This document shows, piece after piece, positions 600 to 62,950 of a DNA stretch of 64,000 bases. This DNA is from an uncultured Holophagae bacterium (GTDB taxonomy: Bacteria > Acidobacteriota > Thermoanaerobaculia > Thermoanaerobaculales > Sulfomarinibacteraceae), in the NCBI GenBank assembly GCA_963710645.1, contig CAVQBD010000006.1, positions 46,550 through 110,549 of the forward strand. Direction: 5' to 3'. The notes beneath the pieces were generated by a model. That model ran no database searches, was not told where the DNA came from, and saw only the letters and a list, made by a program, of their open reading frames with translations. Each line of letters starts with the position of its first letter. Position 1 is the stretch's first letter. The translations under genes and the position numbers were made by a program.

Positions 600-636
600 G
601 TGAATAGTGAATGAGTGAATAGTGAATAGTGAATAG
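600..636. repeat. tandem heptamer repeat (GTGAATA)n, left arm of inverted pair around the 699-1136 ORF
   Basis: Read directly: gtgaatagtgaatgagtgaatagtgaatagtgaatag. It is the reverse complement of the arm at 1137-1165. Confidence 0.85.
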
Positions 637-698
637 GGGTCTGTACGGGCTGCCTGGGTGTTGAAGAAAGGCTGAGAGGCTTTTGACAGTTTCTGGTC

Positions 699-1136
699 AT
701 GTGTTCCTTTCGAATATTGAAAGAGGACACCGTGGACCAGAGATCGCAGACTCCTTCGTATCGAGAACTCATCTGCTGGCAGAAAGCGATGAGGGTGAGC
801 CTTTCCGTTTATCGCGCAACCGACGGATTTCCACCGGATGAACGATTCGGGTTGATCAGCGAGGCTCGCAAGACATCCAGGTCCGTCCTGTTCAACATCG
901 CGGAAGGCTACCAGCGGGACACACCAGCAGAGTTCATCAGGTTCCTTCAAATCGCACGCGGATCTCAGAGCGAGTTGGAGTCCCAGATCATTCTTGCCGA
1001 GAATCTCAATTACCTCTCCAAAGACGAGGCCAGAACTCTGTTGGAAGATACTGCAGAGTTGGGGAGAGTCCTGTTCGGGCTCGTACGCTCGCTCAGGTCA
1101 AAAACGCAGACCTCACGAAATCAATCCAAAACCTGA
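699..1136 (+). CDS. four-helix-bundle protein (23S rRNA intervening-sequence protein family)
   Basis: Family-typical motifs: ...SYRELICWQKAM..., ...RFGLISEARKTSRSVLFNIAEGYQR..., ...FLQIARGSQSELESQI. Size is about 145 aa. Confidence 0.8.
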   Translation: MCSFRILKEDTVDQRSQTPSYRELICWQKAMRVSLSVYRATDGFPPDERFGLISEARKTSRSVLFNIAEGYQRDTPAEFIRFLQIARGSQSELESQIILAENLNYLSKDEARTLLEDTAELGRVLFGLVRSLRSKTQTSRNQSKT

Positions 1137-1165
1137 CTGTTCACTATTCACTATTCGCTATTACC
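1137..1165. repeat. tandem heptamer repeat (TATTCAC)n, right arm (inverted copy of 600-636)
   Basis: Read directly: ctgttcactattcactattcgctattacc. It starts immediately after the stop codon of the four-helix-bundle ORF. Confidence 0.85.
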
Positions 1166-1171
1166 TTGCTC

Positions 1172-2883: not shown

Positions 2884-3405
2884 ATGGGTGAGTTGTCTCA
2901 GCAGTGGCTTGTGGTGCGCACGAAGGCGCGGCAGGAGAAGACCGCCGTGCACCATTTGGCCCAAAGGGAGGTGATTCCCTATTGTCCTATGTTTCTCCAA
3001 CCGCCATGGCACCCGCGGGCCCCCCGGGGGCCGGTGCCGCTCTTTTCAGGCTACATATTTGTTCGGTGCAACCTCACGGAACAACTGAACGCAGTGCGAT
3101 TCTGTCCGGGGGTGCTGGCGCCGGTGGCATTCGGTGGTGAGATAGCCATCGCGGACCAGGGTCTCATCGACGCGCTCAGAGGGCGCGAGGGATCACGCGG
3201 CTACGCGCTGCCGGTGGAGCAGGAGGAGGGCATGCCGATGGGTGCCGTCGTCCGCCTGATGAGCGGTCCGTTCGCGGGTATCGAGGGTGTGTTCAACGGA
3301 TGCCTGCGTGGCGGGCAGCGTGCAAAGGTCCTCCTGGAGCTGCTGCGCGGCCGGCACGAGGTGGAAGTGGATTACAGCTCGCTGGCGCTGGTGCGAGCGG
3401 GCTAG
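2884..3405 (+). CDS. NusG-family transcription antiterminator paralogue (RfaH/UpxY-like), head of EPS locus
   Basis: NGN-like N-terminus (WLVVRTKARQEKTAVHHL...PLFSGYIFVR) plus a KOW-like C-terminus (GAVVRLMSGPFAGIEGVF). It sits at the 5' end of a long co-directional polysaccharide operon. Confidence 0.8.
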   Translation: MGELSQQWLVVRTKARQEKTAVHHLAQREVIPYCPMFLQPPWHPRAPRGPVPLFSGYIFVRCNLTEQLNAVRFCPGVLAPVAFGGEIAIADQGLIDALRGREGSRGYALPVEQEEGMPMGAVVRLMSGPFAGIEGVFNGCLRGGQRAKVLLELLRGRHEVEVDYSSLALVRAG

Positions 3406-3488
3406 GTCGCCGCCTCGAAAGGCGCGCGGCTGCTAAAAATTTAAGAATCAATAGGTTGCACATGCAATCAACCTGCGGTAGCTTTGTC

Positions 3489-3721
3489 TAGAATGCTGAA
3501 TTTTGAAATTTTAATTTTGAATTGCCCCCGCCCGATACGGTATAGAGAATGAGCTCCATCTCCCCATGGACGATCCGATGTGCCCCGACATTGCCACAGG
3601 AAGCCTTCGGCCACGCGTCGTCTCCTCTGGCCTGGGGTATACCGAGTTGGAAAGTCGAAGATCGCAGCGGGGGAGGGGGAATTCAAAATTCAAAATTAAA
3701 AATTGAGAATTCAGAATTCAG
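3489..3721. repeat. ORF-less hairpin element: AT-rich heptamer arms with C/G clamps around a core of about 135 nt
   Basis: Left arm is tagaatgctgaattttgaaattttaattttgaattgcccccgccc (3489-3533). Right arm is gggggagggggaattcaaaattcaaaattaaaaattgagaattcagaattcag (3669-3721). The arms are imperfectly complementary. Confidence 0.75.
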
Positions 3722-3767
3722 TTGCTCCACGGAACTTCCGACTTCCCCTGAAATCCCGAGGCATTGA

Positions 3768-4796: not shown

Positions 4797-4832
4797 AACA
4801 AATTTTGAATTTTGAATTCTTATTTCTTAATG
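4797..4832. repeat. AT-rich heptamer arm (left) flanking the four-helix-bundle gene 4890-5285
   Basis: Read directly: aacaaattttgaattttgaattcttatttcttaatg. It lies directly after the epimerase stop. Confidence 0.8.
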
Positions 4833-4889: not shown

Positions 4890-5285
4890 TTGGCGGAGGC
4901 GAAGGCAAATCCGATTCGGGACAAGAGCTTCGCTTTCGCGGTATCGGTTGTCCGCCTTTGCAAGCACCTCAATACCGCCCGCGAGTTTGTTATTTCGAAG
5001 CAGTTGCTCAGGAGTGGCACAAGCATTGGGGCGAATATCGAAGAAGCGACAGCGGCGGTAAGCCGACGGGATTTTCTTTATCGAATGACCATCGCATCGA
5101 AAGAGTCGAGGGAGGCCCTTTACTGGCTCAAGCTGTTGCAGCATTCGGATCTCATTCACGATCTGGACGTGAGTGCAGAAATATCGACCGCCAAAGAGCT
5201 CGTTCGGATGCTCACGGCAATTGTGAGGACAACCTCCGGCCGACTGAATCAGGAACAAACACACCCCAATTCAGATTCAAACTGA
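4890..5285 (+). CDS. four-helix-bundle protein (23S rRNA intervening-sequence protein family)
   Basis: Family motifs: ...KSFAFAVSVVRLCKHL..., ...QLLRSGTSIGANIEEA..., ...ASKESREALYWLKLL.... Apparent TTG start. Confidence 0.8.
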   Translation: MAEAKANPIRDKSFAFAVSVVRLCKHLNTAREFVISKQLLRSGTSIGANIEEATAAVSRRDFLYRMTIASKESREALYWLKLLQHSDLIHDLDVSAEISTAKELVRMLTAIVRTTSGRLNQEQTHPNSDSN

Positions 5286-5354: not shown

Positions 5355-5404
5355 GGGCGGGTGGGGCAATTGAGAATTCAAAATTAAGATCTGAGAATTC
5401 AAAC
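5355..5404. repeat. G-clamp plus AT-rich heptamer arm (right) flanking the four-helix-bundle gene
   Basis: Read directly: gggcgggtggggcaattgagaattcaaaattaagatctgagaattcaaac. It shares gaattcaaaatt blocks in inverted orientation with 4797-4832. Confidence 0.8.
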
Positions 5405-6887: not shown

Positions 6888-7850
6888 ATGGCTAACTTTG
6901 CTCTGACCGGCGTTGCCGGCTACGTCGCACCGCGCCATCTGCAAGCGATCCGAGACACCGGGAACACCCTGGTGGCAGCGGTTGATCCGCACGACTCGGT
7001 GGGTGTCCTGGATCGGTTCTTCAACCAGGTGGCGTTTTTCACCGAGTTCGAGCGCTTCGATCGCCACCTCGAAAAACTCAGGCGGCGTTCCCCCGAAGAG
7101 GGCGTGCAATGGCTTTCGGTGTGCGCACCAAACCACCTGCACGATGCCCATATCCGGCTCGCCCTGCGCGTTGGTGCTGACGCCATCTGCGAGAAACCGT
7201 TGGTCCTCAACCCGTGGAATCTGGATGCCCTGGCGGAACTCGAGCGTGAGTCCGGTCAAAGGGTCTTCACCGTACTCCAATTGAGGGTGCACCCTGCGCT
7301 GATCAAACTCAAAGAGAAACTCGACAGTGCCGCCGGCGCCAAGCGACATGACGTTCGCCTCAGCTACGTCACCGGCCGTGGCCCTTGGTACCGCTACGCA
7401 TGGAAGGGTGATGCGTCGCGTTCCGGTGGAGTGGCCACAAACATCGGAATCCACTTCTTTGACATGTTGATGTGGTTGTTTGGGCCGGTCCAGGCGAGTG
7501 AAGTCCATGTCTCGACCGAGCAGCGAGCCGCAGGTTTTCTGACCCTCGATCGCGCTGATGTCACCTGGTTTCTGTCCATCGATCCCGCCGACCTGCCCTT
7601 CGAAACCAAGCCGGGTGAGCCCGCGACCTATCGCTCTGTGAACGTGGATGGCGAGGAGGTGGAGTTCTCGGGTGGATTTACGGATCTTCACACCCGGGTC
7701 TACGAGGAGACCTTGGCCGGCAGGGGATTTGGAATCGAAGACGCTCGTCCTTCGGTCGATCTGGCCCACTCGATTCGGCAGGCCAAACCGATACGGCCAT
7801 CTGGACCGCATCATCCGATGATTCAGAAACATCGGAATTTTGAATTTTGA
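6888..7850 (+). CDS. wbpB: Gfo/Idh/MocA oxidoreductase, UDP-GlcNAcA 3-dehydrogenase-like
   Basis: MANFALTGVAGYVAPRHLQAIRDTGN..., ...CEKPLVLN.... Size and position between WbpA-like and WbpD-like genes fit. The last codons and the stop lie inside the heptamer repeat (...RNFEF*). Confidence 0.75.
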   Translation: MANFALTGVAGYVAPRHLQAIRDTGNTLVAAVDPHDSVGVLDRFFNQVAFFTEFERFDRHLEKLRRRSPEEGVQWLSVCAPNHLHDAHIRLALRVGADAICEKPLVLNPWNLDALAELERESGQRVFTVLQLRVHPALIKLKEKLDSAAGAKRHDVRLSYVTGRGPWYRYAWKGDASRSGGVATNIGIHFFDMLMWLFGPVQASEVHVSTEQRAAGFLTLDRADVTWFLSIDPADLPFETKPGEPATYRSVNVDGEEVEFSGGFTDLHTRVYEETLAGRGFGIEDARPSVDLAHSIRQAKPIRPSGPHHPMIQKHRNFEF

Positions 7851-8062
7851 ATTCTTAATTCTCAATTTGGAATCTTGGGCAGTGGATCTGTGATGCGGAA
7901 AATATCGTTGCCGATGAACGATCGTCGCTGGATCGAGGTCTCTCCGCCAGCATGAGTTTTTGTTGCAGCATCGCACCAACAAACCAAAAATTTAGATCCA
8001 GAGCCAAAAAAAAATTAAGAATTAAGAATTAAGAATTAAAAATTGAGAATTAAGAATTCGGA
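7834..8062. repeat. ORF-less hairpin element: AT-rich heptamer arms around a core of about 120 nt
   Basis: Left arm is ggaattttgaattttgaattcttaattctcaatttggaatcttggg (7834-7879). Right arm is ...aaattaagaattaagaattaagaattaaaaattgagaattaagaattcgg (about 8011-8062). Confidence 0.75.
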
Positions 8063-8069
8063 ATGAACC

Positions 8070-32224: not shown

Positions 32225-32735
32225 CGCCAGCCAAGTTACACGTTAAACGTTGCGCGTTAAACGTCCGCCCGACCCCGCTTCGACCTGTCACCCTGAGCGA
32301 GCGAGTTCGACGAGCGAGTCGAAGGGTCTCCTCAAGTAGAAAAGAGAATTCCTGGGCAAGCATCGCCCGTCTGCACCGGTGGAGATCCTTCGACTACGCG
32401 GCCCTTTGGGCCGCTCCGCTCAGGATGACAGCGATGGGGGTATGCAACGGGCTCACGCTAAACGTTCCCATCGATCCCCGCCTACTGTCGGACCGAGTGG
32501 TTTCGGGGAGGGTGGGTGGGGAATTCAGAATTGAAAACTCAAAACTCAGAATTCAGCGTCCGACGTTCAACGTTCAACGTTCAACGTTCAACATTCAACA
32601 TTCGAGATTCCCACCCGCTCCCGCCTGCCGTTGGGGGGGGGTGGTAGGGAATTGAGAATTGAGAATTAAGAATTGAAAATTTCCCGTCTCACCCACAAAC
32701 CCCAACGTTCAACGTTCAACGTTTAACTTTCAACT
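32225..32735. repeat. composite repeat region: ACGTTAA/CAACGTT heptamers, nested palindrome, G4 motif and AT-rich heptamer arms
   Basis: Components: acgttaaacgttgcgcgttaaacgt (32240-32264); inverted pair 32287-32331 / 32381-32429; GGGGAGGGTGGGTGGGG (32505-32521); gaattcagaattgaaaactcaaaactcagaattcag; (caacgtt)n at 32563-32606 and 32703-32735. Confidence 0.8.
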
Positions 32736-34562
32736 TCTTCCCGTTCCCATCTGCTCTTTCCACGCCTTGGCGTATTTTCCCTTGAGAGCGAGGAGTTCCT
32801 CGTGGGTGCCCGACTCCACGATCCGTCCGTCGTCCATGACGTGGATGATGTCGGCGCGCATGGCGGTGGTGAGCCGATGGGAGATGATGATGGCGGTGCG
32901 CCCCTCGGCCACCGTCCGGAAACGCCTGACCCAGTCGATCTCGGACCACGAGTCCATGGCGCTGGTGGGCTCGTCAAGCAGAATCACCGGTGCATCGCGA
33001 ACGGCCGCACGGGCCAGAGCGATCCTCTGCCACTCGCCCCCGGACAACTCGGTTCCTCCGGAAAACCAGCTGCCCAGCAGGGTGTCGATCCCGTCCGGCA
33101 GTCGTTCGAGGAGCGCATCGGCACCCGCTGTCGACACCGCTGCGGCCACCCGAGCGTCCGTCGCCTCGTCGTCGATGGTTCCCAGTTCGATGTTCTGTCG
33201 GACGGTGGCCGAGTAGTGCATTGGCTCCTGGAACAGCACGGTGACCAATCGCCGAGCGTCGGCCAACTTCATCAGACGAAGGTCGCGCCCGCCGATCTCC
33301 ACCTGGCCTGCGTCGGGATCGTAGAGTCGGCACAGAAGTTTGAACAGCGTGCTCTTGCCTGCTCCGTTGACGCCCAGCAGCGCCGCGATCTGACCCGGCG
33401 CCACCTCGAGATCGAAATGGTCGAAGATCAGTCGATCCAGGCTGGGGTAGCGGAACGTGACGTTACGGAACCGTACAGACGGTGGCGATTGGGAATCCGC
33501 GAACTTGGCGGTCGGGGGATCCTCGATCTGCGGTCTCACATCCAGGAACTCGAAGAGGTTTTGCAGGAACAGCGTGTTTGTGACCACCTGACCCATCGTC
33601 TCGAGCAGGGACCGCATGAGTTTTTGGCCCTGGTTGAAGGCCTGGAAGAACATGGCCAGGTCGCCGAGAGTCGCCCCTCCCCGAATCGTTTGAACCACCA
33701 TCCAGATGACGGCTCCACCCATCACGGCAAGGGCGGCCGCGCCTGCGGCCATTTCAGACAGCGCCTGGGATTTGGCGAGATCGATCTGCTCGCCCCGGAG
33801 TCGGCCGCGGAGATCGCGGAAACGTCCTGCAAACTCTTCGCCGAGGCCGAAGAGTCGGATTTCCGGTGCCGGATCACGGTGGGTGAGGAGCCAGTCGAAG
33901 TAATACGTTCGTCGGATATCGGCCGTGGTTTCGATCCTCCATCTGTACTGTTTGACGGAATACCGCATGACGACCAGCAGCGCCGGGACCGAGCTGATAA
34001 CCAACGCCAGCGGAACCCACCAGCCGAACTGGGCGAGGACGGCGGCCATGGCCACCAACGTCATCCCGTGTTGCACGAGGCCGCCAAGGCCCTCGACCAG
34101 GGCGATCGGTCGGTAGTATGAGTCCGTCCGGGCACGGTGCAGTTGGTCGTGATACTCGGGAGTCTCGTAGTACGCGAGATCGGCCGCCACAGCCTGCCTG
34201 TGAATCAATCCGGAGAGATGATCCGACACGCGCTCAGCCTGAGCCGTTCGCACCCATCGGCCTGCAGCGGCGAGCACCTCCGAGACGAGCAGCAGGGCGG
34301 CCATCAGCAGGGCGAGGACCAGAGGCTGTTGGATGGCCTCCCAATTCCCTCCCGCGTCCGCCGCAGCCACGATGCTATCAACAAGGATCTTGGTGATATA
34401 CACGATGGCCACCGGCAACACGCCCTGGACCACCAGCAGCAGGACCCATGCCACGGTCCAGCGTCCGCCAGCTTGCCGGACCAATCCAAGCGCACGCGGG
34501 ATGTGCGGCAGCTGAGCCCTGACCTTTTTCAGCTTTGAGGTGATTTCGCCGCCTTGGGGCAT
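32730..34562 (-). CDS. ABC exporter, fused permease/ATPase (McjD/MsbA-like half transporter)
   Basis: Six-TM N-domain, then Walker A GVNGAGKSTLFKLL, signature LSGGEWQRIALARA and Walker B ILLDEPTSAMD. 610 aa, intact. Confidence 0.9.
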   Translation of the reverse strand: MPQGGEITSKLKKVRAQLPHIPRALGLVRQAGGRWTVAWVLLLVVQGVLPVAIVYITKILVDSIVAAADAGGNWEAIQQPLVLALLMAALLLVSEVLAAAGRWVRTAQAERVSDHLSGLIHRQAVAADLAYYETPEYHDQLHRARTDSYYRPIALVEGLGGLVQHGMTLVAMAAVLAQFGWWVPLALVISSVPALLVVMRYSVKQYRWRIETTADIRRTYYFDWLLTHRDPAPEIRLFGLGEEFAGRFRDLRGRLRGEQIDLAKSQALSEMAAGAAALAVMGGAVIWMVVQTIRGGATLGDLAMFFQAFNQGQKLMRSLLETMGQVVTNTLFLQNLFEFLDVRPQIEDPPTAKFADSQSPPSVRFRNVTFRYPSLDRLIFDHFDLEVAPGQIAALLGVNGAGKSTLFKLLCRLYDPDAGQVEIGGRDLRLMKLADARRLVTVLFQEPMHYSATVRQNIELGTIDDEATDARVAAAVSTAGADALLERLPDGIDTLLGSWFSGGTELSGGEWQRIALARAAVRDAPVILLDEPTSAMDSWSEIDWVRRFRTVAEGRTAIIISHRLTTAMRADIIHVMDDGRIVESGTHEELLALKGKYAKAWKEQMGTGRS

Positions 34563-35717: not shown

Positions 35718-35918
35718 CTACCCACTGCTGCCGAGTCCGCCGGGGCTGAGTTTCGTCCTGCCGCCAGCCACGTTGTCGGGATTGTCGCCCACAGTCAATC
35801 GATTCACGATCGAAGCAATACGACGGACCGAAATTGCCGGCCGCTCATAGGGGCGCAGAATCCGGTTGCGATCCGTGTCGGGTGTGCACCGCTGAGACAT
35901 TTTGTTGGGCAATTTCAT
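35718..35918 (-). CDS. candidate RiPP (lasso-type) precursor peptide, 66 aa, non-canonical core
   Basis: GGAG lies 6 nt upstream of the ATG. The ORF sits between the cyclase and kinase genes on the same strand. Sequence: MKLPNKMSQRCTPDTDRNRILRPYERPAISVRRIASIVNRLTVGDNPDNVAGGRTKLSPGGLGSSG. It has a YxxPxI leader-like motif and a T-V|G junction, but no Asp/Glu at core positions 7-9. Confidence 0.35.
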   Translation of the reverse strand: MKLPNKMSQRCTPDTDRNRILRPYERPAISVRRIASIVNRLTVGDNPDNVAGGRTKLSPGGLGSSG

Positions 35919-35991
35919 GATGGACTCCGGTCCTTTTGTCATTTCCCATGTCCGACTGAATTGTCTGAACCTATAATCTAGCATATTGTAC

Positions 35992-37810
35992 TCAAGAAGT
36001 GCAAGTCATCCTCGCGATGTAAACCTCGGCGACGCTCAAGTGCATGACGTTGAAAAGCGTCGCATCGTCGTGATCGGGGGCTTGGTCTACTCTTCTCATC
36101 CATGCGGGGCTAACAACTCCCTGCTCCACCAGATTCCACGAAGTCATGTTGGATTCGGCAATTACCTTGTGTGCGGTGGCCTTGAATGCAGCGATATAAC
36201 CCGTCTTGCTGATGCGATTCAACACCGTTGGTGGCGCCATGCCCTCGCCAACCAACCGCAGGAGGTGCTTGTCGCGGAGTCCGTGAGTGGGCGCCCTGCC
36301 CGGAATCCTCAGGGCGAAGTCAATGATATCGAGGTCCATGAACGGGCATCGGCGTTCCACTCCGTACCTGGCCATGACCTGCTCGCCGCTTTCGAGCTCA
36401 TGCCAATCCTGCACGAGGATCAGCCTGCGAAGAAGGGACCGGCGCGACCGGCTTCGACGATGTCGTCTGTCGAGAGCCGCGATACGGCCGTCGAGGTCGA
36501 CGCGGGGTCGATCCCGGTTCGGGTGGAGCCAATCGACCGAATCGACGGATGCGGACTTGGGCTGGACGCGGCGCAACGCTGGTTGGACGATGTGGTTGTG
36601 GACGAACCCAAAGCGCTTCTGCCCGGGTGTGAGTTGAAATCTGAAGAGGTCACGAACGAATCCGGGCAGATTCCGGAGAGAAGATAATCGGCCAAGTAGG
36701 AGGTGGTGCCGCCAAGCCATTCGTCGGCGCCCTCGCCCACGAGATCGACCCGGCGACCATCCTGGGACAGCCGCCGGGCGTGTCGTTCTGCAAAGGGCAA
36801 CCCACCGAAGTGCAGACCATCCACCTCGGCCGCAAGTCGCGCGATATCGGGCCGAAGGTCGTCGTTTCTGAGGTCCATCAGCACGCCGTTTGAACCCGTG
36901 AAGCGATGAGTCTCCAAGATCCGCTCGGTCTCATCGCATTCCAGTCCCGGAAAGACGTGGGAGTAGGCCAGGCCGTGTGCCGCCACCGGATCGCCCTGTC
37001 GAATGCGGTGAGCCAGCAAGCCCCACAAGACGGTGGAGTCGATGCCGCCGCTGAGGCTGACCGCGAAAGGTGCGTCCCGGAGGCACCGATTCAATGCGCG
37101 GTCGAGGAGGACCTCGAGCTCGACGACGAGTTGGTCGACATCGTATCGGCCCTCGCCTTCGGACGGGGGCACCCAGTAGGCATCGCCGCGGGCCTCCGTT
37201 CCGTTCAGTTCCGCCGGGAATTCGATCGCTGTGTTCGGTTGCAGGCGGGCGACCTGACGTACCAGAGTCCGGGACGGTTCTTCGAATTCGACGAGCATCT
37301 CCTGGACAAGTCCGTCCATGTCGATCTCCGGCGTGACGCGGCCCCCGCGGTCACCTGGCGGATCTCGGTGGCGATATAAGTGCGACCATGGAATGACCCG
37401 TGGAACAAGGGCTTGCGGCCCACGACGTCGCGGACCGCAAGCAGTTTGCGCCGACTCCGGTCATAGATGAGCATGGAGAACTCACCGCGGAGTTCTGCAA
37501 AAAGCTGGCCGCCCAGATCCTCGTAGGCCACTGCCACTCTGGCGGCGTGGGTGGCATCGGCGGGGATGTGCCAAGAGCGTGAGGAGGCAATTTCGGCCCA
37601 ATTGCCGATGTATCCGTGAATGGCTACGGTCCAGTTGCCTTCGGTGGCCAGCGACGCTTCGCCATCGGAAGCCTGAATTCCGACAGCCACGCCGTGCTCC
37701 ACGCAATGCGTCGCGGTGCCGCGATATGGAGACCGCTCCATCATTCGGCGCAGCCGCACCTCTAGCTCCGGGTCCCCACTTTCGCCGATGATTGCTACAA
37801 TCGCGCCCAT
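35992..37810 (-). pseudogene. asparagine-synthetase-like protein (lasso cyclase McjC-like), two frame changes
   Basis: N-terminal amidotransferase-like part is in ORF 37205-37822. PP-loop SLSGGIDSTVLWGL is in ORF 36420-37319. The C-terminal part is in ORF 35992-36720. The combined length of about 600 aa fits the family. Confidence 0.75.
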
Positions 37811-37826
37811 GCCGTTGGGCAAGTAT

Positions 37827-38279
37827 ATGGAATACGAACAAGATCAGCCACGCTTTCGTGACCCCGGCGACCTCGTTCTCTTCGTCAAGGCGCTGCCCAT
37901 GGCCCGGCTTGCCCAGCGCGTGCGGTCGACTCCGTTGCCCGAGGTCGTGGCTGCAATGGGCGCCGGGGGCGGGCGAGAAATGGATTCCCGGCGGGCGCGG
38001 GTGGCCGCCGGGAGGGCGTGTTCACTGTTCTGTCGGTTGTTTGGCGGCCTCGACTCGTGTCTGACGCGGTCGCTGGTCGCGGGCGCCATGTTGTCGGCGG
38101 CTCACGAAGTCCTGCTGCACGTGGGCTTCAGGCCCGGCTCCCGCGAGGTGCCGCTCGACGGACACGCGTGGTTGACGGTGGACGGCGAGCGGCTGGACTT
38201 GGAGCGTCCCGATGAAGACGTGCGGCCGTACACCGAGGTGTTGGACATCCCGTTTTCGGCGAGAGCAAGGAGCAGATGA
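37827..38279 (+). CDS. transglutaminase-core protein, lasso peptide B2 protease-like (PF13471-like)
   Basis: ...GGLDSCLTRSLVAGAMLSAAHEVLLHVGF...PLDGHAWLTVDGERL... carries the Cys ... His-Ala-Trp pattern of McjB C-terminal domain proteins. The start is 16 nt from the divergent cyclase start. Confidence 0.7.
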   Translation: MEYEQDQPRFRDPGDLVLFVKALPMARLAQRVRSTPLPEVVAAMGAGGGREMDSRRARVAAGRACSLFCRLFGGLDSCLTRSLVAGAMLSAAHEVLLHVGFRPGSREVPLDGHAWLTVDGERLDLERPDEDVRPYTEVLDIPFSARARSR

Positions 38280-38578
38280 TGAGTCGATTGGAAGAGCTTT
38301 CGCGGCTTCTGGCCTCGGATGACGAATTCACTCAGCAGAAACTGGCGGACGACACCGGGGTGATTCTGGATGTGGACTCGCTGCAGGTCTACTCGCTGAA
38401 CCCAACGGGTCAATTTCTGATCGACTGTCTGAGGCAGGGGATCGTCACCGAGGAGGGTCTGATGGAGCGGATGGTTGCCGAGTTTGACGTCGAGGAAGAG
38501 GTGGCGAAGCACGACGTCGCCGGATTTCTGGCCGAGCTCGAAACCTACCTGATCGACAAACGAAAAACGAAGAGCTGA
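38276..38578 (+). CDS. PqqD-family protein (RiPP recognition element, lasso B1-like)
   Basis: About 100 aa: ...VILDVDSLQVYSLNPTGQFLIDCL...GLMERMVAEFDVEEEVAKHDVAGFLAELE..., a typical PqqD layout. The ATGA start overlaps the B2 stop. Confidence 0.7.
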   Translation: MMSRLEELSRLLASDDEFTQQKLADDTGVILDVDSLQVYSLNPTGQFLIDCLRQGIVTEEGLMERMVAEFDVEEEVAKHDVAGFLAELETYLIDKRKTKS

Positions 38579-38598: not shown

Positions 38599-38629
38599 AT
38601 TCACTATTCACTATTCGCTGTTCACTTGC
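38599..38629. repeat. (TATTCAC)n heptamer arm, no nearby partner
   Basis: Read directly: attcactattcactattcgctgttcacttgc. Confidence 0.8.
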
Positions 38630-40107: not shown

Positions 40108-40582
<475 letters not shown>

Positions 40583-41422: not shown

Positions 41423-41533
41423 TCGAATTTTGAATTCTCGATTCTCAATTTTGATTTCCCCCGCGTCCCAGCCAGAGGACGGGGGGCGGGTGGAAATTCA
41501 AAACCCAAAACTCAAAATTCAGAATTCTCGATC
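41423..41533. repeat. ORF-less hairpin element (AT-rich heptamer arms plus C/G clamp)
   Basis: Read directly: tcgaattttgaattctcgattctcaattttgatttccccc - about 19 nt - gggggcgggtggaaattcaaaacccaaaactcaaaattcagaattctcgatc. It is flanked by gcgaatttcgagttgcagattgcagatttcccc (41331-41363) and CAACGTT-like repeats (41545-41570). Confidence 0.8.
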
Positions 41534-42817: not shown

Positions 42818-42848
42818 GTCGCGTTTCGCGCGAGCTGGGCTGGTCAAA

Positions 42849-42988
42849 CCTTCGACCCTCGACCTTCGACCTTCGACTTTCGACCTTCGACTTGCGACCT
42901 TCGACTTGCGACATTGACCCATCCTGATGGCCGGGCGGGTGGTCGGTGTCCTTCCCGTCTCGAATTTCGCATTTCGCATTTCGAATTG
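42849..42988. repeat. tandem heptamers (TTCGACC / TTGCGACC)n followed by (ATTTCGC/ATTTCGA)n
   Basis: ccttcgaccctcgaccttcgaccttcgactttcgaccttcgacttgcgaccttcgacttgcgac (42849-42912) and tctcgaatttcgcatttcgcatttcgaattggg (42958-42990), between convergent genes. Confidence 0.85.
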
Positions 42989-46887: not shown

Positions 46888-47181
46888 GTGAGAGCGTATC
46901 TGGTCTTCACCGAAAGCGGGCCGATCTTGCTGCTCACCAGCTGCTCCGCGATCACCGAGGACACACTGCTGGGGGCGCTCGAGGACCGCGGGATTCGGAA
47001 GTTTATTGCGTATGAGGTCCCTGTGGACTCGGTCCACCGCCTCTACGGTGTGCCCTTCGAAGTCGTGGCGTCGGATCTTGAGCGCGGTCAGCGGATGAGG
47101 GTGCTGGATTTCAACGGTCCGCACATCCTCGACACGTTTTCGCTCTCCGACCTCGGCAGGCCGATCACCTACGAGCACTGA
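46888..47181 (+). CDS. conserved small hypothetical protein (97 aa), paralogue 1
   Basis: GTG start 4 nt after GGGAGG. Compact alpha/beta-looking protein: (M)RAYLVFTESGPILLLTS...KFIAYEVPVDSVHRLYGVPFEVVASDLE...RVLDFNGPHI.... Confidence 0.6.
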   Translation: MRAYLVFTESGPILLLTSCSAITEDTLLGALEDRGIRKFIAYEVPVDSVHRLYGVPFEVVASDLERGQRMRVLDFNGPHILDTFSLSDLGRPITYEH

Positions 47182-47273
47182 GGATCGCAACTCGAGGTCA
47201 CACCGCGCGGGACAGTCGAGGGGCGCCGGGGTACAATCGGGTAATTCCACCACACCGAGACAAGGGGGTGCGG

Positions 47274-47567
47274 ATGAGAGCGTACATCATATTTTCGGGG
47301 ACCGGCCCCATCCTTATCTTGACCACATACCCGGAGCTCGCCGACGAGCGGTTGGTGGACAAGCTCGGTCACAAGGGCATCGTGAAGTTCATCGCCTACG
47401 AGGTTCCGGTGGACGTGGTTCGCCGGATCTATGGGGTGCCTTTCGACGTCATCGCCGCGGATCTGGAACACGCCGAGGATGTGCGCGTCCTCGATTTCAA
47501 CGGCCACCACATCTTTTCGAGCTTCTCCTTTTCCCACCTCGGCGAGCCGATCAAGATCGGGGATTGA
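47274..47567 (+). CDS. conserved small hypothetical protein (97 aa), paralogue 2
   Basis: ATG 5 nt after AAGGGGG. It has 53 of 97 positions identical to 46888-47181 in my manual gap-free alignment. Confidence 0.6.
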   Translation: MRAYIIFSGTGPILILTTYPELADERLVDKLGHKGIVKFIAYEVPVDVVRRIYGVPFDVIAADLEHAEDVRVLDFNGHHIFSSFSFSHLGEPIKIGD

Positions 47568-47622
47568 GCCCTCCGCCCGCCCGCCCAGGGGCTAGGGGCT
47601 GGAACCCGCCTTCCCAGGGACC

Positions 47623-47812
47623 GGATGCTCGATGCTGGATGCTCGATGCTGGATCCCCCACCCATCCGACCGGCGCAAGGAACAAGGAACAGGGAGCAAG
47701 GAACACCCCCCGCCCGGTGTAGAAAGTGTAGAGGTTGCGGAGGCAGGGGACTGCACCATTCGAAATTCGAAATTCGACATTCGAATCCCAAATCCCGAGT
47801 CCCGAATCCCGC
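47623..47812. repeat. composite tandem-heptamer region
   Basis: Components: (GGATGCT/CGATGCT)n 47623-47655; CCCCCACCC; (AAGGAAC)n 47678-47705; CCCCCCGCCC; (ATTCGAA)n 47758-47786 running into (TCCCGAG/TCCCAAA)n to 47812. Confidence 0.85.
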
Positions 47813-47863
47813 GTTGACCCGTGTTTCGGAAAGGAAAAGAGAAAACCCGAAACCCGGAACTGA

Positions 47864-50256: not shown

Positions 50257-50276
50257 CGCGTGAGTATATCGTCGAC

Positions 50277-50366
50277 GGGACTCGGGACTCGGGACTCGGG
50301 ACTCGGGACTCGGGACTCGGGAACGGCTCTTCAAATTTCGAATTTCGAACTTCGAATTTCGAGTTC
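50277..50366. repeat. (GGGACTC)6 followed by (ATTTCGA)n; inverted relative to 47758-47812
   Basis: Read directly: gggactcgggactcgggactcgggactcgggactcgggaacggctcttcaaatttcgaatttcgaacttcgaatttcgag. Confidence 0.9.
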
Positions 50367-53522: not shown

Positions 53523-53670
53523 AGTGAATAGAAAATGGTGAATAGTGAATAGTGAATAGTGAATAGTGAATAGTGAATAGGGCTGGGTTGGTTGTGATCA
53601 CCTCGGCGAGCAGAGCCCCGGGTGGATGGGCGGTTCTATTCACCATTCGCTATTCACTGTTTGCGATTCA
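53523..53670. repeat. ORF-less hairpin element with (GTGAATA)n arms
   Basis: agtgaatagaaaatggtgaatagtgaatagtgaatagtgaatagtgaatagtgaatag (53523-53580), a 55-nt GC-rich core, then ctattcaccattcgctattcactgtttgcgattc (53636-53669). Confidence 0.85.
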
Positions 53671-53677
53671 ATACCTT

Positions 53678-54355
53678 CTACGAGCTGCGTGATCCGCCCT
53701 GGCGGAAGGAGCGGCCAAGGCGCCGGGCGACGCGCACGGTTGCGGGCTGCCATCTGGGCCAGAGCTTGGCCAGATAGATGGTCGAAACCACTGTAACCAG
53801 CGCCACGGCTACCCAGGTCCCGAGGACCTTGCCGGTGGCGGTGGTGGCTTCCAGGCGGGCGAGATCGCCGGCCAGCCACCAGCCCAGCCCGGACCAGGCC
53901 AGCAGGTGAACCGAGAGCGCGACCAAATCCCACGTGAGGAAGCGACGCCAGGAAATGCCCGCCACGCCACAGCCGGCGATCCAGGCGCCGCGGCCAAGGG
54001 GAAGAACCCGCGCCGGCACGAAACCGACCATCGCTGCGGGCGACTCATTGAGACGGGCGGTCACCGATTCAAGCTGGCTTGAGATGCGAGGGAACCGATC
54101 AAGTCTCGGCCGCAACCAGCGGCCGGCCAGATAGACGGCCTGATCTGTGATCAGGTGGCTGAGTCCTGCCGCGGCCAACAGGACAACTGCCTCGGTCGGC
54201 GATCCGGCACGGGCGGCCAGGACGCCAACGGCCACCATGAACAACTCCTCTGGAATCACGTGACCCACTGCCCGGATCAGGGGCGGCAGACCAAGCGCCA
54301 ACAGAAGGGCATGGGGCTCGAGCCAGGCGAGGATATGGGCGAGGTGGCTCTCCAC
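53678..54355 (-). CDS. DedA/VTT-domain membrane protein
   Basis: Polytopic, about 225 aa; ...IPEELFMVAVGVLAA... and ...GFVPARVLPLGRGAWIAGCG... resemble the SNARE-associated/DedA layout. By-eye call. Confidence 0.65.
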   Translation of the reverse strand: MESHLAHILAWLEPHALLLALGLPPLIRAVGHVIPEELFMVAVGVLAARAGSPTEAVVLLAAAGLSHLITDQAVYLAGRWLRPRLDRFPRISSQLESVTARLNESPAAMVGFVPARVLPLGRGAWIAGCGVAGISWRRFLTWDLVALSVHLLAWSGLGWWLAGDLARLEATTATGKVLGTWVAVALVTVVSTIYLAKLWPRWQPATVRVARRLGRSFRQGGSRSS

Positions 54356-54408: not shown

Positions 54409-54546
54409 CTCTGAATTCTCAATTCTCGATTCTCAATTTTGAATTGCCATTTCCTTGTTGTCGGGTTCACCGATTAGGTGGCGGAATTCAAAACTTAAAA
54501 ATTTAATCTCAGAATTAAGAACTGAGAATTCAAAATTCAAAACTCA
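54409..54546. repeat. ORF-less hairpin element (AT-rich heptamer arms)
   Basis: Read directly: ctctgaattctcaattctcgattctcaattttgaattgcc - about 35 nt - ggaattcaaaacttaaaaatttaatctcagaattaagaactgagaattcaaaattcaaaactc. Confidence 0.85.
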
Positions 54547-57700: not shown

Positions 57701-57918
57701 GAAAAGAGTGAAAAGTGAATAGTGAATAGTAAAAAGTGGTTTGGATCGGCGTGAGTGTCTCGCTGTCACGTCGGTCTCGGGACCGCCATCTATTCACTAT
57801 TTGCTATTCAGTTCAACTCGGGACTCGTCCCCTCCCACCCATGCGTTGAATCCATCCGAGCCCCGAGCCCCGAGTCCCGAATCCCGTCCGGGATCCCCAT
57901 TCTATTCACTATTCACTT
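57701..57918. repeat. composite repeat region: (GTGAATA)n hairpin, then GGGACTC/CCCGAGC heptamers, then a second (TATTCAC)n
   Basis: Components: gaaaagagtgaaaagtgaatagtgaatagtaaaaagtg (57701-57738); tctattcactatttgctattcag (57789-57811); ccgagccccgagccccgagtcccgaatcccg (57855-57885); tctattcactattcacttgc (57900-57919). Confidence 0.85.
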
Positions 57919-60183: not shown

Positions 60184-60202
60184 AACAGGTGGACCATTGT
60201 AG

Positions 60203-60335
60203 CTCGGGGCTTGGGGCTCGGGGCTCGGGACTCGGGACTCGGGACTCGGGACCCGGGACTCGCGACTCGAATTTCGAATTTCGAATTGTGCGACCACCGC
60301 CTCCCCACCTTCCACATCTTCCACACCTTCCACAC
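60203..60335. repeat. composite: (GGGGCTC/GGGACTC)n, (TCGAATT)n, (CTTCCACA-N)n
   Basis: Read directly: ctcggggcttggggctcggggctcgggactcgggactcgggactcgggacccgggactcgcgactcgaatttcgaatttcgaattg...ccttccacatcttccacaccttccacacc. Confidence 0.85.
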
Positions 60336-60375
60336 CGCGGGGGAGGGCGGGGGTTCCCGTGTTAGACTCCCGCCG

Positions 60376-61209
60376 ATGTCGACGCCCGCCGTTCCGGTCC
60401 TGCGAAACTCCGCAAGGCAGACACTTAACCCGATCCTCGAGCTTCGCGACCTGCTCGCCAACTGGAATCTCATCGCCAATTTGGTGCGGCGCGACCTGAC
60501 GGTGCGCTACAAGCGGTCCGTCATCGGTTTCTTCTGGACCATGCTCAACCCGCTTCTGCTGATGATCATCCTGACCGTGGTCTTCTCGACGGTGTTCCGT
60601 TTTGAGGGGATCAAGTACTACCCGACCTATTTTCTCTCCGCCTACCTGGTCTTCGGCTTCTTCTCCCAGACAACGGTGCAGTCCATGACGTCGCTCGGAT
60701 TTCACGGGTCGCTCATGAAGCGGGTCCGTGTGCCCAAGTCCATATTCGCGGTGGCCACCACAATTTCGGGCCTGGTCAATCTGTGCCTTGCTTATGTTCC
60801 GCTGTTCGTGATCATGATTTTCACCGGCGCGCCGATCTGCAAGACGGTGCTCTTCCTGCCCATCAGTTTCCTGATCATTGCAGCCTTCACCCTCGGGGTT
60901 TCCTTACTGTTGTCGGCTTTGGCGGTCTACTTCGACGATGTCTCCCATATGTACCAGGTCGCCACCGTCGGGCTGATGTATATGACGCCAATTATCTATC
61001 CCATCTCCATCGTTCCCTACAAGTGGCTGTGGCTGATTCGCATCAATCCCCTGACCCAACTCTTCAAGCTGGCGCGAGACCCGGTCTACAACTGCGCGTT
61101 GCCCGGCACCCACGTGATCATGGCCTCGGTGGCCGCGGCGGCGATCGCGTTGGTGGTGGGCTGGTTGGTCTTTCACCGGCTTGCCCGCGGCTTTTACCTC
61201 CACCTGTGA
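60376..61209 (+). CDS. ABC-2 type polysaccharide exporter permease (Wzm/TagG-like)
   Basis: ...LIANLVRRDLTVRYKRSVIGFFWTMLNPLLLM... is the canonical ABC-2 N-terminal motif, with six predicted TM segments. Confidence 0.85.
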   Translation: MSTPAVPVLRNSARQTLNPILELRDLLANWNLIANLVRRDLTVRYKRSVIGFFWTMLNPLLLMIILTVVFSTVFRFEGIKYYPTYFLSAYLVFGFFSQTTVQSMTSLGFHGSLMKRVRVPKSIFAVATTISGLVNLCLAYVPLFVIMIFTGAPICKTVLFLPISFLIIAAFTLGVSLLLSALAVYFDDVSHMYQVATVGLMYMTPIIYPISIVPYKWLWLIRINPLTQLFKLARDPVYNCALPGTHVIMASVAAAAIALVVGWLVFHRLARGFYLHL

Positions 61210-62000
61210 TGAGCACGCCTGCCATCGAATTCCGCGATGTGTCGCTGCGCTACCGGCTGTTGGCCGAACGGGGGATCGCCACGCTCAAGGAGTGGATGAT
61301 CCGCCGGTTGACATCCCGCTTGTCCTATCAAGAGCTTTCGGCATTGTCCCAGGTCAGCTTCACGGTGGATCCGGGCAGGACCTTTGGCATCATCGGTCAC
61401 AACGGAGCCGGCAAGTCGACTTTGCTCCGGATCGCCGGGGGCATTCTGGCGCCCACCGAGGGTGAGGCCATCATCCGTGGCCGGCTCGCGCCGATCATCG
61501 AGCTCGGCCTCGGTTTCGAGGGCGAGCTCTCCGGCCGAGAAAACGTCTACTTCAACGGCGCCCTGCTCGGCCGGTCGCGGCTCGAGATGCAGGAGCGCTT
61601 CGACGAAGTCGTGGAATTCTCGGAACTCGGCGAATTCATCGATCAGCCAATCCGAACGTATTCGAGCGGAATGGTGGCGCGGCTTGCCTTCGCCATCGCA
61701 ACCACCGTGGACGCCCACATCCTTCTCCTCGACGAAGTGATGTCGGTGGGCGACGAGCGCTTCCGGCTGAAATGCCAGCAGCGGATCACCGATTTTAGAA
61801 ACGCCGGTGTCACCATCCTTGTGGTGTCCCACGATCTTGAAGCCATCGAGCGTCTATGTGACGACGTCATGTGGTTGGAGCACGGTGCCATGAAATCCCT
61901 GGGTCCGGCTCACGAGGTGGTGGGCGCCTACCGGTCCTCGGTGGAGCAGAATGCTGCGGGCTCGGGAGTTGGCGGGACAGTCACACCTGCCGAGCCATGA
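61209..62000 (+). CDS. polysaccharide ABC exporter ATPase (Wzt/TagH-like)
   Basis: Walker A GIIGHNGAGKSTLL, signature YSSGMVARLAFAIA, Walker B LLLDEVMSVGD. The ATGA start overlaps the permease stop. Confidence 0.9.
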   Translation: MSTPAIEFRDVSLRYRLLAERGIATLKEWMIRRLTSRLSYQELSALSQVSFTVDPGRTFGIIGHNGAGKSTLLRIAGGILAPTEGEAIIRGRLAPIIELGLGFEGELSGRENVYFNGALLGRSRLEMQERFDEVVEFSELGEFIDQPIRTYSSGMVARLAFAIATTVDAHILLLDEVMSVGDERFRLKCQQRITDFRNAGVTILVVSHDLEAIERLCDDVMWLEHGAMKSLGPAHEVVGAYRSSVEQNAAGSGVGGTVTPAEP

Positions 62001-62866
62001 GCCGTCAGCCCTGCCTCTCGGTGGTGATCCCGACCCGCAATCGACGTCGCGTGCTGGCCGAGACCCTCGGGGCGCTCGACGGCCAGACGTCTCTTCCCGG
62101 TCCGCTGGAGGTGATCGTTGTCATCGACGGATCGTCCGACGACACCCAGGAGTGGCTGGCCGCATCCCGATTCGAGGGGTTCCGGTTGGAGGTGCTGGTG
62201 CTCGATGGGGGTGGCCCGGCACGCGCTCGGAACCAGGGGGTCGAGCGTGCAGGAGCGGACCGTGTGCTGCTGTTGGGAGACGACACCATTCCCCAACCCC
62301 ATACCCTGGCCGATCATCTCGCAGCCGCCGGTGGCCGCGAGGTGGCGGTCCAGGGCATGATCGACTGGGATCCGACCCTTCCCATCACCGAAGTGATGTA
62401 CTACCTGGCACCGGGAGGGCCCCAGTTCTATTTCAAGGGCCTGGTGGAAGGAAGCGAGATTCCGTTCTCCGCCGTGCTCGGCTCGAATCTGTCGGCCCCG
62501 GCGGAGTGGCTTCGCGCCGAGCCGTTCGACGAGGGATTTACCGAGGCATGTTTCGAAGACACCGAGATGGCGTGGCGGTGGCGGCGGCGGGGATGGGTGA
62601 CGGTGTACTCACCCAGGGCGCGCTGTCTCCACCATCATCGCTACGACACCATGGGTCCTTTCCTGGAACGCCAACGGCGTGCGGGCCGGTGGGCTCGGCG
62701 GGCGGTGGTGATTCACCCGGGAATGCTGCCCCGTGTGGCGTTGCAGCCCATCGCCTTCTCCGCGGTGTCGGCCCTGCGGTTCGCCATTCGCCGCCGTCAG
62801 CGAGACCGCTGGGATCTGCTGTGCCGACTCGCTTTCGCCCGCGGCTTTCTCTTTGGTAAGTCTTAG
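61997..62866 (+). CDS. glycosyltransferase family 2
   Basis: ...CLSVVIPTRNRRRVL...VIVVIDGSSDDT...ARARNQG...LLLGDDT.... Confidence 0.8.
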   Translation: MSRQPCLSVVIPTRNRRRVLAETLGALDGQTSLPGPLEVIVVIDGSSDDTQEWLAASRFEGFRLEVLVLDGGGPARARNQGVERAGADRVLLLGDDTIPQPHTLADHLAAAGGREVAVQGMIDWDPTLPITEVMYYLAPGGPQFYFKGLVEGSEIPFSAVLGSNLSAPAEWLRAEPFDEGFTEACFEDTEMAWRWRRRGWVTVYSPRARCLHHHRYDTMGPFLERQRRAGRWARRAVVIHPGMLPRVALQPIAFSAVSALRFAIRRRQRDRWDLLCRLAFARGFLFGKS

Positions 62867-62869
62867 ATA

Positions 62870-62950
62870 GTTCCGAGTTCCGAGTTCCGAGTTCCGAGTT
62901 CCGAGTTTCGAATTTCGAATCGTCCGATCCCCCTCCTCCACACCTTCCAC
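62870..62950. repeat. composite: (GTTCCGA)5, (TTTCGAA)n, CCACACCTTCCAC
   Basis: Read directly: agttccgagttccgagttccgagttccgagttccgagtttcgaatttcgaatcg...cctcctccacaccttccac. It has the same module order as 60203-60335. Confidence 0.85.

Follow-up and report, generated by a model that had tools for sequence, protein, structure and literature searches.

What are the tandem heptanucleotide repeats that occupy so many gaps between genes in the 64,000-nucleotide stretch of an uncultured Holophagae bacterium (contig CAVQBD010000006.1 of assembly GCA_963710645.1, positions 46,550 to 110,549; in the following, the whole stretch is called the window)? According to the SPADE survey of prokaryotes, heptamers outnumber all other tandem repeats between genes, with "no clear clue" to their function (PMC6344855), and the citing passages of PMC4679880 and PMC4692102 attribute to Mrazek (2007) the finding that heptamers are over-represented among long simple sequence repeats (SSRs). 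About half of the arrays in the window form inverted pairs, which are predicted to fold into long hairpins, and two of these pairs enclose a small gene of the four-helix-bundle (4HB) family PF05635/TIGR02436, a very widespread protein family that is equally unexplained outside diversity-generating retroelements. These arrays appear to be the arms of 4HB elements of the type known as intervening sequences (IVSs) of rRNA, placed here between protein-coding genes.

Period-seven arrays and their inverted pairs

A scan of the whole window with one score scheme over periods 4–12 yielded 34 tandem arrays of period 7, comprising 1,177 nt, as compared to 1, 2, 3, 0, 3, 0, 0 and 4 arrays for the periods 4, 5, 6, 8, 9, 10, 11 and 12, respectively. 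With a stricter score 22 arrays of period 7 and a single one of period 9 were left and none of the remaining periods; when the threshold was lowered, 43 of 45 arrays were intergenic or at gene ends, the other two being weak and intragenic. The genes flanking the arrays were confirmed by Pfam. Tandem Repeats Finder also places period-7 arrays at essentially all sites listed in the first-pass annotation of this DNA, and arrays do overrun the stop codons of the gene at 6888–7850, the ABC exporter (32730), the bactofilin (40136) and the family 2 glycosyltransferase (GT2; 59242), as had been described there. The impression that nearly every intergenic gap is filled was too generous, since the some 21 array-bearing gaps make up roughly half of the real gaps, and a stretch of 23 kb at 8.7–31.7 kb, a polysaccharide gene cluster for which the gene map is crude, contains no heptamer array at all. 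Within 8700–31700 the GC content drops to 0.555–0.565 at 12–16 kb; this array-free DNA may be a recent acquisition in which arrays have not yet accumulated.

The repeat families had been considered unrelated to each other. They are not, as units drift into each other within a single 7-nt register: at 32521–32610 an unbroken register leads from GAATTCA via ACGTTCA to ACATTCA, and at 62869–62920 AGTTCCG turns into AGTTTCG and AATTTCG via single transitions. In addition, a composite of (ACTCGGG)n and (AATTTCG)n is found four times, at 47758, 50276, 60202 and 62869. The period is kept in the window arrays while the unit drifts.

The inverted array pairs noted in the first pass are real. In such a pair an arm, often continued by a C-run, is followed by a spacer, a G-run and the complementary arm, and the typical pair fills the entire gap, be it intercistronic or 3' of a gene. 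The clamps with a GGGTGGG/CCCACCC-like motif that had been ascribed to these arms are present as G- or C-runs at the apical end of the pairs 3525/3660, 41459/41477 and 32492/32611, though not in every pair. For nine paired regions of the window the predicted fold significantly exceeds that of dinucleotide shuffles (z = -3.1 to -6.2); where the arrays are direct only, no significant fold is seen (z = -0.9 to +1.95). The arms are also ordered. In the plus-strand operon at 3.4–8.1 kb the T-rich arm begins at or on the stop codon of the upstream gene and the A-rich arm stops 5–11 nt short of the next ATG, and throughout the window the T-rich arm comes first in all six GAATTNA pairs and the purine-rich arm in all three GTGAATA pairs. 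Pairs that enclose no open reading frame (ORF) have mutually unrelated spacer sequences.

Four-helix-bundle genes inside array pairs

Both small ORFs that are enclosed by array pairs in the window belong to PF05635/TIGR02436 (Table 1). The first sits in a 500-nt "loop" between inverted GTGAATA arrays; its product reaches 104.7 bits with TIGR02436 (cut-off 24) and matches PDB entry 2GSC, the structure of the pentameric Xanthomonas S23p, with an E value of 5e-18. The second encodes a protein 61% identical to the 4HB protein of a relative (L133 in our numbering of retrieved loci), in which the arms are of the same family as well. The two window proteins are about 20% identical to each other. Their arm families, GTGAATA and GAATTNA, are at the same time the two commonest families of ORF-less pairs in the window. 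The PF05635/TIGR02436 family also includes Avd, the accessory protein of diversity-generating retroelements. Such a retroelement was considered and dropped: the neighbours of the 4HB genes encode adenosylhomocysteinase (AdoHcyase), an epimerase and UDP-glucose dehydrogenase, and the bAvd model of Pfam reaches 19.7 bits, below its cut-off of 40.

How general is the combination of 4HB gene and arrays? Among 38 4HB genes examined, from at least nine phyla, 34 are flanked by short-period arrays, mostly of 7 nt and usually as matched inverted arms. One part of this sample, the plasmid set, consists of 22 matches to the two window proteins that were chosen by protein similarity and taxonomic spread alone, with hosts among Nostocales, other cyanobacteria, Azospirillum, Gemmatirosa, Monoglobus, Bernardetia, Chondrinema, Treponema and Chlorohelix. 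By eye, short tandem arrays are found at the ORF borders in all 22; a strict finder reports arrays for 17 of them, 11 with arrays on both sides. Within 250 nt of a 4HB ORF there are 3.45 arrays per kb, versus 0.28 per kb elsewhere, and of the 12 period-7 arrays in four 40-kb control stretches, whose genomes are not rich in heptamers, 8 lie at most 350 nt from the 4HB ORF. Two loci fetched for other reasons show the same picture: in Mesorhizobium hawassense the 4HB gene located between nuoC and nuoD has (GTGAATA/GTGAATG)n as one arm and (CATTCAC)n as the other, and arrays of the GAGCTAA type and of CTCTTTG surround a 4HB gene of a deltaproteobacterium. Moreover, in a collection of 80 metagenome contigs encoding an AdoHcyase relative, a hidden Markov model (HMM) of the 4HB family found nine more 4HB genes and re-found that of L075; seven of the nine have inverted arrays, two of period 8 and two of mixed period 6/7. 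The array-flanked 4HB loci include L035, L133, L174, L161 and L194, the last with two genes. The period-8 arms lie at 2579–2619 and 3169–3206 of L171 and at 1912–2023 of L188, the mixed ones near 3960 and 13104 of L194; therefore 7 nt is the usual, not the absolute, period of the arms.

The units vary from element to element (GTAGGGA, GGGTGTA, CAGGTGA, GGAGATA, TTAGTGA, TCACTGG and others), but within an element the arms agree: of 22 scored elements, 16 have arms that differ, in inverted orientation, at no more than two of the seven positions, and the arm–arm duplexes have a median z of -3.7. In 21 of 26 elements the arm 5' of the ORF has the higher purine content of the two (p = 7e-5). As a rule, the elements are inserted between the cistrons of an operon, such as nuoC/nuoD, the genes for the beta and alpha subunits of ribonucleotide reductase, or those for the adaptor and permease of a resistance-nodulation-division exporter.

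Do protein and arm belong together as a cognate pair? The similarity of 4HB proteins is weakly linked to that of their arm units (Spearman -0.13, Mantel p = 0.04), and proteins that are 59–74% identical may differ at three or four of the seven positions of the unit. A protein–arm specificity like that between RAYT transposases and their repetitive extragenic palindromic (REP) sequences was set aside, as this weak correlation was all that emerged. Two observations nevertheless point towards a cognate relation: the arm families that the window's 4HB genes share with its ORF-less pairs, and the GTGAATA arms that the first window element has in common with the Mesorhizobium element at a protein identity of 38%.

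Some of the 4HB genes have neighbours of a particular kind. Several lie within defence operons (L205, L210, L214, L216 and L220), namely between cas6 and cas4 in Pseudanabaena and Anabaena sp. 90, between cas10 and cmr3 in Picosynechococcus, between hsdS and hsdR in Monoglobus and between helicase and methylase genes in Chlorohelix. A 4HB gene directly 3' of AdoHcyase is found in distinct lineages: in the window, at 10276–10625 of L174, at 1474–1857 of L188, and in L123 and L124, where it appears to be truncated or fused. It is convergent to AdoHcyase in the window's clade and co-directional in two more distant contigs. Two single-protein scans of viral contigs found no 4HB relatives.

Relation to rRNA intervening sequences and to other repeats

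In Azospirillum lipoferum (L206) a 23S rRNA gene (Rfam LSU, 1716 bits) is interrupted by a 4HB element. The ORF of this element is enclosed by CAGAGGA/CGGATGA heptamer arrays and their complement, and the arrays themselves make up the stem, so that a true IVS has the same architecture as the elements of the window. The insert presumably replaces helix 45, judged from the E. coli 23S sequence around CCGAAGCUGCGG ... GGUAGGGGAGCGUUC. The helix-45 IVS of Coxiella likewise contains an S23p ORF and terminal inverted repeats and in addition three tandem GACAGAT heptamers, the number of which varies between strains; it is cut in vitro by the RNase III of Coxiella and of E. coli, and the 5' cut falls at the start of the first repeat (PMC4990558). 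The same paper cites further cases of IVSs removed by RNase III, from Salmonella, Leptospira and Alphaproteobacteria. Both 4HB elements of the window share with the S23p IVSs of Coxiella and Leptospira the PF05635 ORF within complementary, stem-forming terminal repeats. They differ from them in lying between protein genes, insertion into helix 9, 25 or 45 of 23S rRNA not being found in the window, and most of the window's pairs contain no ORF. A search of the accessible literature retrieved no link between 4HB/S23p genes and heptamers beyond the single Coxiella case and no paper that connects arrays of the short tandemly repeated repetitive (STRR) type with PF05635 genes; the generalised link between heptamers and 4HB genes appears to be new to the literature.

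As such, the arrays are repeats of a known kind, found in a new host. Like the STRR sequences of heterocystous cyanobacteria and other intergenic heptamer SSRs, they consist of head-to-tail 7-nt units, fall into several families per genome and are intergenic; different from STRR sequences, they occur in an Acidobacteria-like host and have units other than STRR1-3. In the strict sense, reportedly that of Mazel in 1990, STRR sequences have a heterocystous cyanobacterial host and the units STRR1-3, which excludes the window arrays, whereas these agree with the general description of intergenic tandem heptamers (at least three copies, outside of coding sequence). The cyanobacterial plasmid 4HB genes that were sampled do sit within STRR-type arrays. 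That the host of the window is not a cyanobacterium had been correctly judged in the first pass, because the best named homologues of the epimerase are from Acidobacteriota (Pyrinomonadaceae, Blastocatellia and Ca. Sulfomarinibacteraceae); the window's own epimerase was not found among recorded sequences.

Two further heptamer systems are instructive. GGGNATC repeats of Xanthomonas and Nostoc are found near the 3' ends of genes at positions conserved between species, while length and sequence vary; they resemble the window arrays in being intergenic and close to the end of the upstream gene, with some overlap of stop codons, and in Xanthomonas in the occurrence of paired inverted copies, but they are G-rich and have been studied as G-quadruplex formers with no 4HB link reported, whereas the main window families, GAATTNA and GTGAATA, are AT-rich (PMC4692102). 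TAACTGA repeats are common to marine Beggiatoaceae, Cyanobacteria and Bacteroidetes and thereby resemble GTGAATA as one tandem heptamer across distant phyla; they are often located just 5' of a start codon, in gaps that also contain other heptamers (PMC4679880). The Beggiatoaceae differ from the window by one dominant unit, by 169 direct sets versus one indirect set, and by a proposed role in translation, a hairpin architecture being undescribed (PMC4679880).

Distribution and conservation of the arrays

Contrary to the first-pass inference, the arrays are not lineage-specific as a kind of element. A search for three exact tandem copies of GTGAATA gave more than 120 genome stretches of many phyla, among them Bacteroidota, Cyanobacteria, Acidobacteriota (including Chloracidobacterium), Campylobacterota, Clostridia, Alphaproteobacteria (Mesorhizobium) and Methylotuvimicrobium, and the loci selected in this way contain 286 arrays of period 7 versus at most 23 of any other period. 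It is the high array density alone that is restricted to a clade: the window and its closest relatives have about 0.3–0.5 period-7 arrays per kb, among the 80 AdoHcyase contigs those with the closest AdoHcyase relatives (83–85% amino acid identity) have about 0.3 per kb, and the remaining ones have about 0.03 per kb, not above the values for periods 6, 8 or 9. As universal markers of 4HB genes GTGAATA arrays were rejected, as 3 of 120 selected loci hold a 4HB gene, one of which adjoins a matched array.

What is retained between relatives is the position. The array behind the AdoHcyase gene starts 0–8 nt after the stop codon in relatives with 76–85% amino acid identity, and its unit differs: it is GAATAGT in the window, directly after the stop, GAATTCG in L122, GAATTAG in L123 and L133, AGTTTTG in L126, AATTCGG in L128, AGCTTTC in L136 and AGGGACC in L154. 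A few relatives have period-6 runs of CCCGTG/CCCGAT at this site instead. In two of these relatives, L136 and L154, an inverted array lies behind the first one, separated from it by a C-run or an inner hairpin (folds with z = -7.0 and -7.2, respectively). The independently assembled, 88%-identical contig L001 terminates in (AACGTTT)n at the site that corresponds to 32235 of the window; among the retrieved loci it alone matches the window. The drift of the unit and the differing copy numbers and units at orthologous sites fit replication slippage, as proposed in the first pass, as the way in which arrays grow and shrink.

A model for the paired arrays and its alternatives

How could the paired arrays act? 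We tentatively favour, with a probability of roughly 45%, the reading that the inverted pairs of the window are IVS-type stem–loop modules between protein genes that would be cut by RNase III in the transcript. In such a scheme the gap would be co-transcribed with its neighbouring genes and the two arms would pair into the predicted long imperfect stem, which RNase III may then cleave as in the IVSs of 23S rRNA. The flanking cistrons would thereby be separated, with hairpin stubs at their ends, and the RNA of the loop would be freed, in some cases as mRNA for a 4HB protein. Since the stem is built of tandem units, it would still pair after gain or loss of whole units, and stems of this type would be robust to the very slippage that makes them vary. 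Lengthening, shortening and drift of the arrays by slippage and point mutation are consistent with the data. ORF-less pairs could be an empty form that receives 4HB genes or derivatives that have lost them. The scheme covers the inverted pairs; the 7-nt period and the lone direct arrays lie outside it. Of the RNA-level roles suggested in the first pass, processing sites are thus the one favoured, on the strength of an IVS-like architecture that had not been seen there, while terminators found no support.

Several observations weigh against this model. Lone direct arrays without a stable fold are present at 38599, 40108, 42848, 47624 and 62869. If selection acted at the level of RNA, G-U pairs would favour the sense strand, but sense and antisense folds show no consistent difference, with mixed results in the window and 17 versus 15 among 32 4HB elements (p = 0.65); therefore, sequence cannot tell a structure of the RNA from one of the DNA. 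An HMM made from 26 sequences finds no 4HB remnant (E < 1) in the spacers of the ORF-less pairs. Four 4HB elements (L205, L218, L221 and L223) have arrays in the same orientation on both sides, and four of the 38 4HB genes (L123, L124, L228 and L229) have no tandem arrays. Moreover, most heptamer arrays lie away from 4HB genes, of which there are three in 800 kb of GTGAATA-selected loci, and the 4HB genes sampled are of modest number, many of them from cyanobacterial plasmids.

Could the arrays simply be a neutral by-product of a slippage bias towards 7-nt units (Mrazek et al.), without any function and sharing permissive gaps with 4HB genes? The drift from family to family within a single register, the differences in copy number and unit between relatives, the lone arrays without predicted structure, the missing heptamer excess in distant AdoHcyase relatives and the excess in many genomes, for which no function is known (PMC6344855; PMC4692102), would all be expected. 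Nevertheless, we consider such an origin unlikely, as the site behind the AdoHcyase stop codon is kept across relatives in spite of the change of unit, the arms of one element match while units differ between elements, the orientation of the arms is non-random both across elements and in the window, and heptamer-poor genomes have their arrays clustered at the 4HB gene. Alternatively, the heptamer could be the binding unit of an oligomeric nucleic-acid-binding protein, either the pentameric 4HB/S23p protein itself or proteins of the cold-shock or S1 type, for which the arrays would be landing pads on RNA or DNA, the hairpins being secondary. Avd, a relative of the 4HB proteins, binds RNA and reverse transcriptase. 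Protein binding would account for direct as well as inverted arrays and for a strict period with a loose sequence; the frequent co-occurrence of 4HB genes and arrays, the arm families shared with the ORF-less pairs and with Mesorhizobium, and the binding of heptamer repeats by CspB, as cited in PMC4679880, point in the same direction. The loose relation between protein and unit, the number of arrays, which far exceeds that of 4HB genes, and results suggesting that the S23p of Coxiella is not made in vivo (PMC4990558) argue against it and make this explanation quite improbable.

A third origin, at the level of DNA, would be a mobile element, with the 4HB gene and its inverted arms as transposable or cassette unit and the ORF-less pairs as non-autonomous copies similar to miniature inverted-repeat transposable elements. 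RAYT genes are likewise flanked by inverted copies of their own REP repeat, and in both systems short structured intergenic repeats far outnumber the small gene that they flank; REPs, however, are single palindromes and not tandem arrays, and RAYT is an HUH transposase. 4HB genes are wedged into unrelated operons and into 23S rRNA in many phyla, orientation is consistent within a family, and mobility has long been suspected for IVSs (PMC4990558). On the other side, no transposase was found among about 40 Pfam-scanned ORFs of the window (most ORFs at about 8.7–31.7 kb were not scanned), nor an integrase, and target-site duplications were not seen. We know of no enzymatic or catalytic activity of a 4HB protein. 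At about 20% identity the two window proteins are therefore not recent copies, the ORF-less pairs share neither a spacer sequence nor 4HB remnants, and orthologous arrays change their unit in place instead of being present or absent. Such mobility thus seems very unlikely to us. Finally, an artefact of sequencing or assembly or ordinary intrinsic terminators have hardly any probability left. In relatives, contigs frequently break off within an array (L001, L133 and L188), and the repeats therefore do trouble assemblers; the arrays of the window are nevertheless no assembly artefact, a possibility that the first-pass annotation had named as its own refutation, because independent metagenome assemblies from different projects have arrays at the orthologous sites, and finished plasmids and chromosomes contain the same structures. 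Many arrays are at the 3' ends of genes, as terminators would be, but the hairpins have no U-tracts and are missing from a terminator scan, which found 16 terminator-like sites in the window versus 13.4 expected from shuffles and in which the only strong canonical terminator, at 32192–32212, is a separate element beside the arrays.

What would follow if the paired arrays are IVS-type modules cut by RNase III? If heptamers and 4HB genes belong together, as in the 34 of 38 cases, the questions of what either is for would both become open to ordinary experiments, and RNase III excision of selfish or regulatory inserts, known from rRNA, would be widely used inside protein-coding operons, including those for CRISPR-Cas and restriction-modification. 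In its widest and, to our mind, unlikely form, 4HB genes and heptamer arrays could be the two halves of a single bacteria-wide element system, with the intergenic arrays of cyanobacteria (STRR), Bacteroidota, Acidobacteriota and other phyla as its ORF-less IVS-type form and a 4HB pentamer that would act on the stem or depend on it; this would explain the 7-nt periodicity of intergenic repeats together with the function of a common orphan protein family.

Array sites and neighbouring genes of the window

Table 1. Four-helix-bundle elements and array sites of the window (positions in nt; z, folding relative to dinucleotide shuffles; percentages, complementarity of the arms)
Feature	Position	Strand	Basis
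Element 1, 5' arm (AGTGAAT)n, 5 nt past stop of upstream gene 1–594	599..636	+	614–636 pairs with 1137–1159, 23 nt, 91%
4HB gene 1 (PF05635 23S_rRNA_IVP / TIGR02436; S23p, Avd-like)	717..1136	+	Pfam E 1.6e-32
Element 1, 3' arm (ACTATTC)n, between 4HB stop and stop of convergent AdoHcyase gene (1172–2599, minus)	1136..1162	+	Arrays, pairing
ORF-less pair, T-rich arm + C-run, GAATTNA, 3' of RfaH-like gene	3491..3533	+	43 nt, 81%; arms 136 nt apart; 3480–3730 z = -3.1
Partner of 3491–3533, G-run + A-rich arm, upstream of epimerase gene (3768)	3670..3721	+	Pairing, fold
Element 2, 5' arm (AATTTTG)n, 8 nt past epimerase stop	4801..4831	+	4804–4831 pairs with 5376–5403, 28 nt, 75%
4HB gene 2 (PF05635 / TIGR02436), between epimerase and UDP-glucose dehydrogenase genes	4890..5285	+	Pfam E 4e-22; TIGR02436 94.3 bits
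Element 2, 3' arm (GAGAATTCAAAATTAAG...), ends 5 nt before ATG at 5409	5369..5403	+	Pairing
ORF-less pair, T-rich arm, over last codons and stop of gene 6888–7850	7835..7876	+	41 nt, 80%; 7825–8069 z = -5.3
Partner of 7835–7876, A-rich arm, ends 11 nt before ATG at 8070	8011..8058	+	Pairing, fold
Degenerate (ACGTTAA)n, 3' of terminator 32192–32212	32235..32264	+	Tandem Repeats Finder; relative L001
Composite block in convergent gap: G-run, (GAATTNA)n into (ACGTTCA)n in one register, C-run, G-run, (GAATTGA)n, (CAACGTT)n overlapping ABC-exporter stop	32492..32736	+	Fold z = -3.1
Lone (ATTCACT)n after PqqD gene, no partner	38599..38626	+	z = +1.95, no stable fold
Lone (CTACTGC)x6 over bactofilin stop	40108..40150	+	z = +1.2
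Tight GAATTNA inverted pair: T-rich arm, C-run, 8-nt loop, G-run, A-rich arm	41425..41527	+	44 nt, 70%; z = -4.1
(ACCTTCG)x8 + (TCGAATT)x4, convergent gap	42848..42987	+	z = 0.0
Six short arrays (GATGCTC, CAAGGAA, ATTCGAA, AATCCCG ...), convergent gap	47587..47860	+	z = +0.4
Perfect (CGGGACT)x6.7, then (TTCGAAT)n, between RluD-like and Maf genes	50276..50362	+	z = -0.9
GTGAATA inverted pair, (AGTGAAT)x8 + CTATTCAC..., 62 nt between arms	53523..53680	+	45 nt, 78%; z = -5.2
GAATTNA inverted pair between two minus-strand genes, arm 2 over ABC ATPase stop (54537)	54410..54546	+	z = -3.9
Divergent gap: GTGAATA pair (57707/57789), GGGACTC pair (57818/57856), third TATTCAC array	57703..57917	+	z = -6.2
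GAATTNA inverted pair, fills 90-nt convergent gap, over both stop codons	59149..59250	+	34 nt, 82%; z = -3.6
(ACTCGGG)x9.6, then (TCGAATT)x3, divergent gap	60202..60287	+	z = -2.2
(AGTTCCG)x5 drifting to AGTTTCG, AATTTCG, begins 3 nt after GT2 stop	62869..62920	+	z = +1.3

An Rfam scan of the window matched tRNA alone, and no known RNA family covers the arrays. The idea that arrays provide stop codons in all three frames was dropped, because several units (GAATTCA, TATTCAC and TCAATTC) carry no stop codon. For annotation the arrays are a nuisance: they give rise to low-complexity ORFs that are spurious, run across genuine stop codons and interrupt the assembly of metagenomes. Of the two copies of a 9-nt unit that had been listed, the one at 60302–60336 (TCCACACCT x3.9), at the 5' end of an ABC-2 permease ORF, stands, while the copy near 62934 is much weaker.

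A NusG paralogue similar to RfaH and UpxY (2884–3405, plus strand) heads the polysaccharide cluster of about 28 kb (3768–31731); it has a NusG N-terminal domain and reaches 64 bits with the RfaH model and 49 bits with that of UpxY, both under the cut-off. The first ORF-less array pair separates this RfaH-like gene from the first biosynthetic gene. Downstream, the gene set at 32730–38578 resembles one for a lasso peptide, with an ABC exporter (32730–34562, minus strand), an Asn-synthase-like fragment (35992–36720, minus strand), a transglutaminase-like protein (37788–38279) and PqqD (38276–38578). Furthermore, two adjacent paralogous small ORFs of 97 and 99 amino acids (46888–47181 and 47268–47567) have a high GC content at third codon positions (GC3) and no Pfam match.

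Two other repeats were noticed in passing. In L228 and L229, unverified gut "phage" contigs, the motifs GTGATATT/ATATCAC or TGAAAT/ATTTCA are interspersed about 18–20 nt apart 5' of the 4HB genes. In the window itself a second dispersed repeat, unrelated to the heptamers, is found at 32286–32330 and 32417–32432 (GTCACCCTGAGCGAGCGAG...GAGTCGAAGGG, with the inverted partner CGCTCAGGATGAC), and it recurs 3' of AdoHcyase in L122, L123, L126 and L131.

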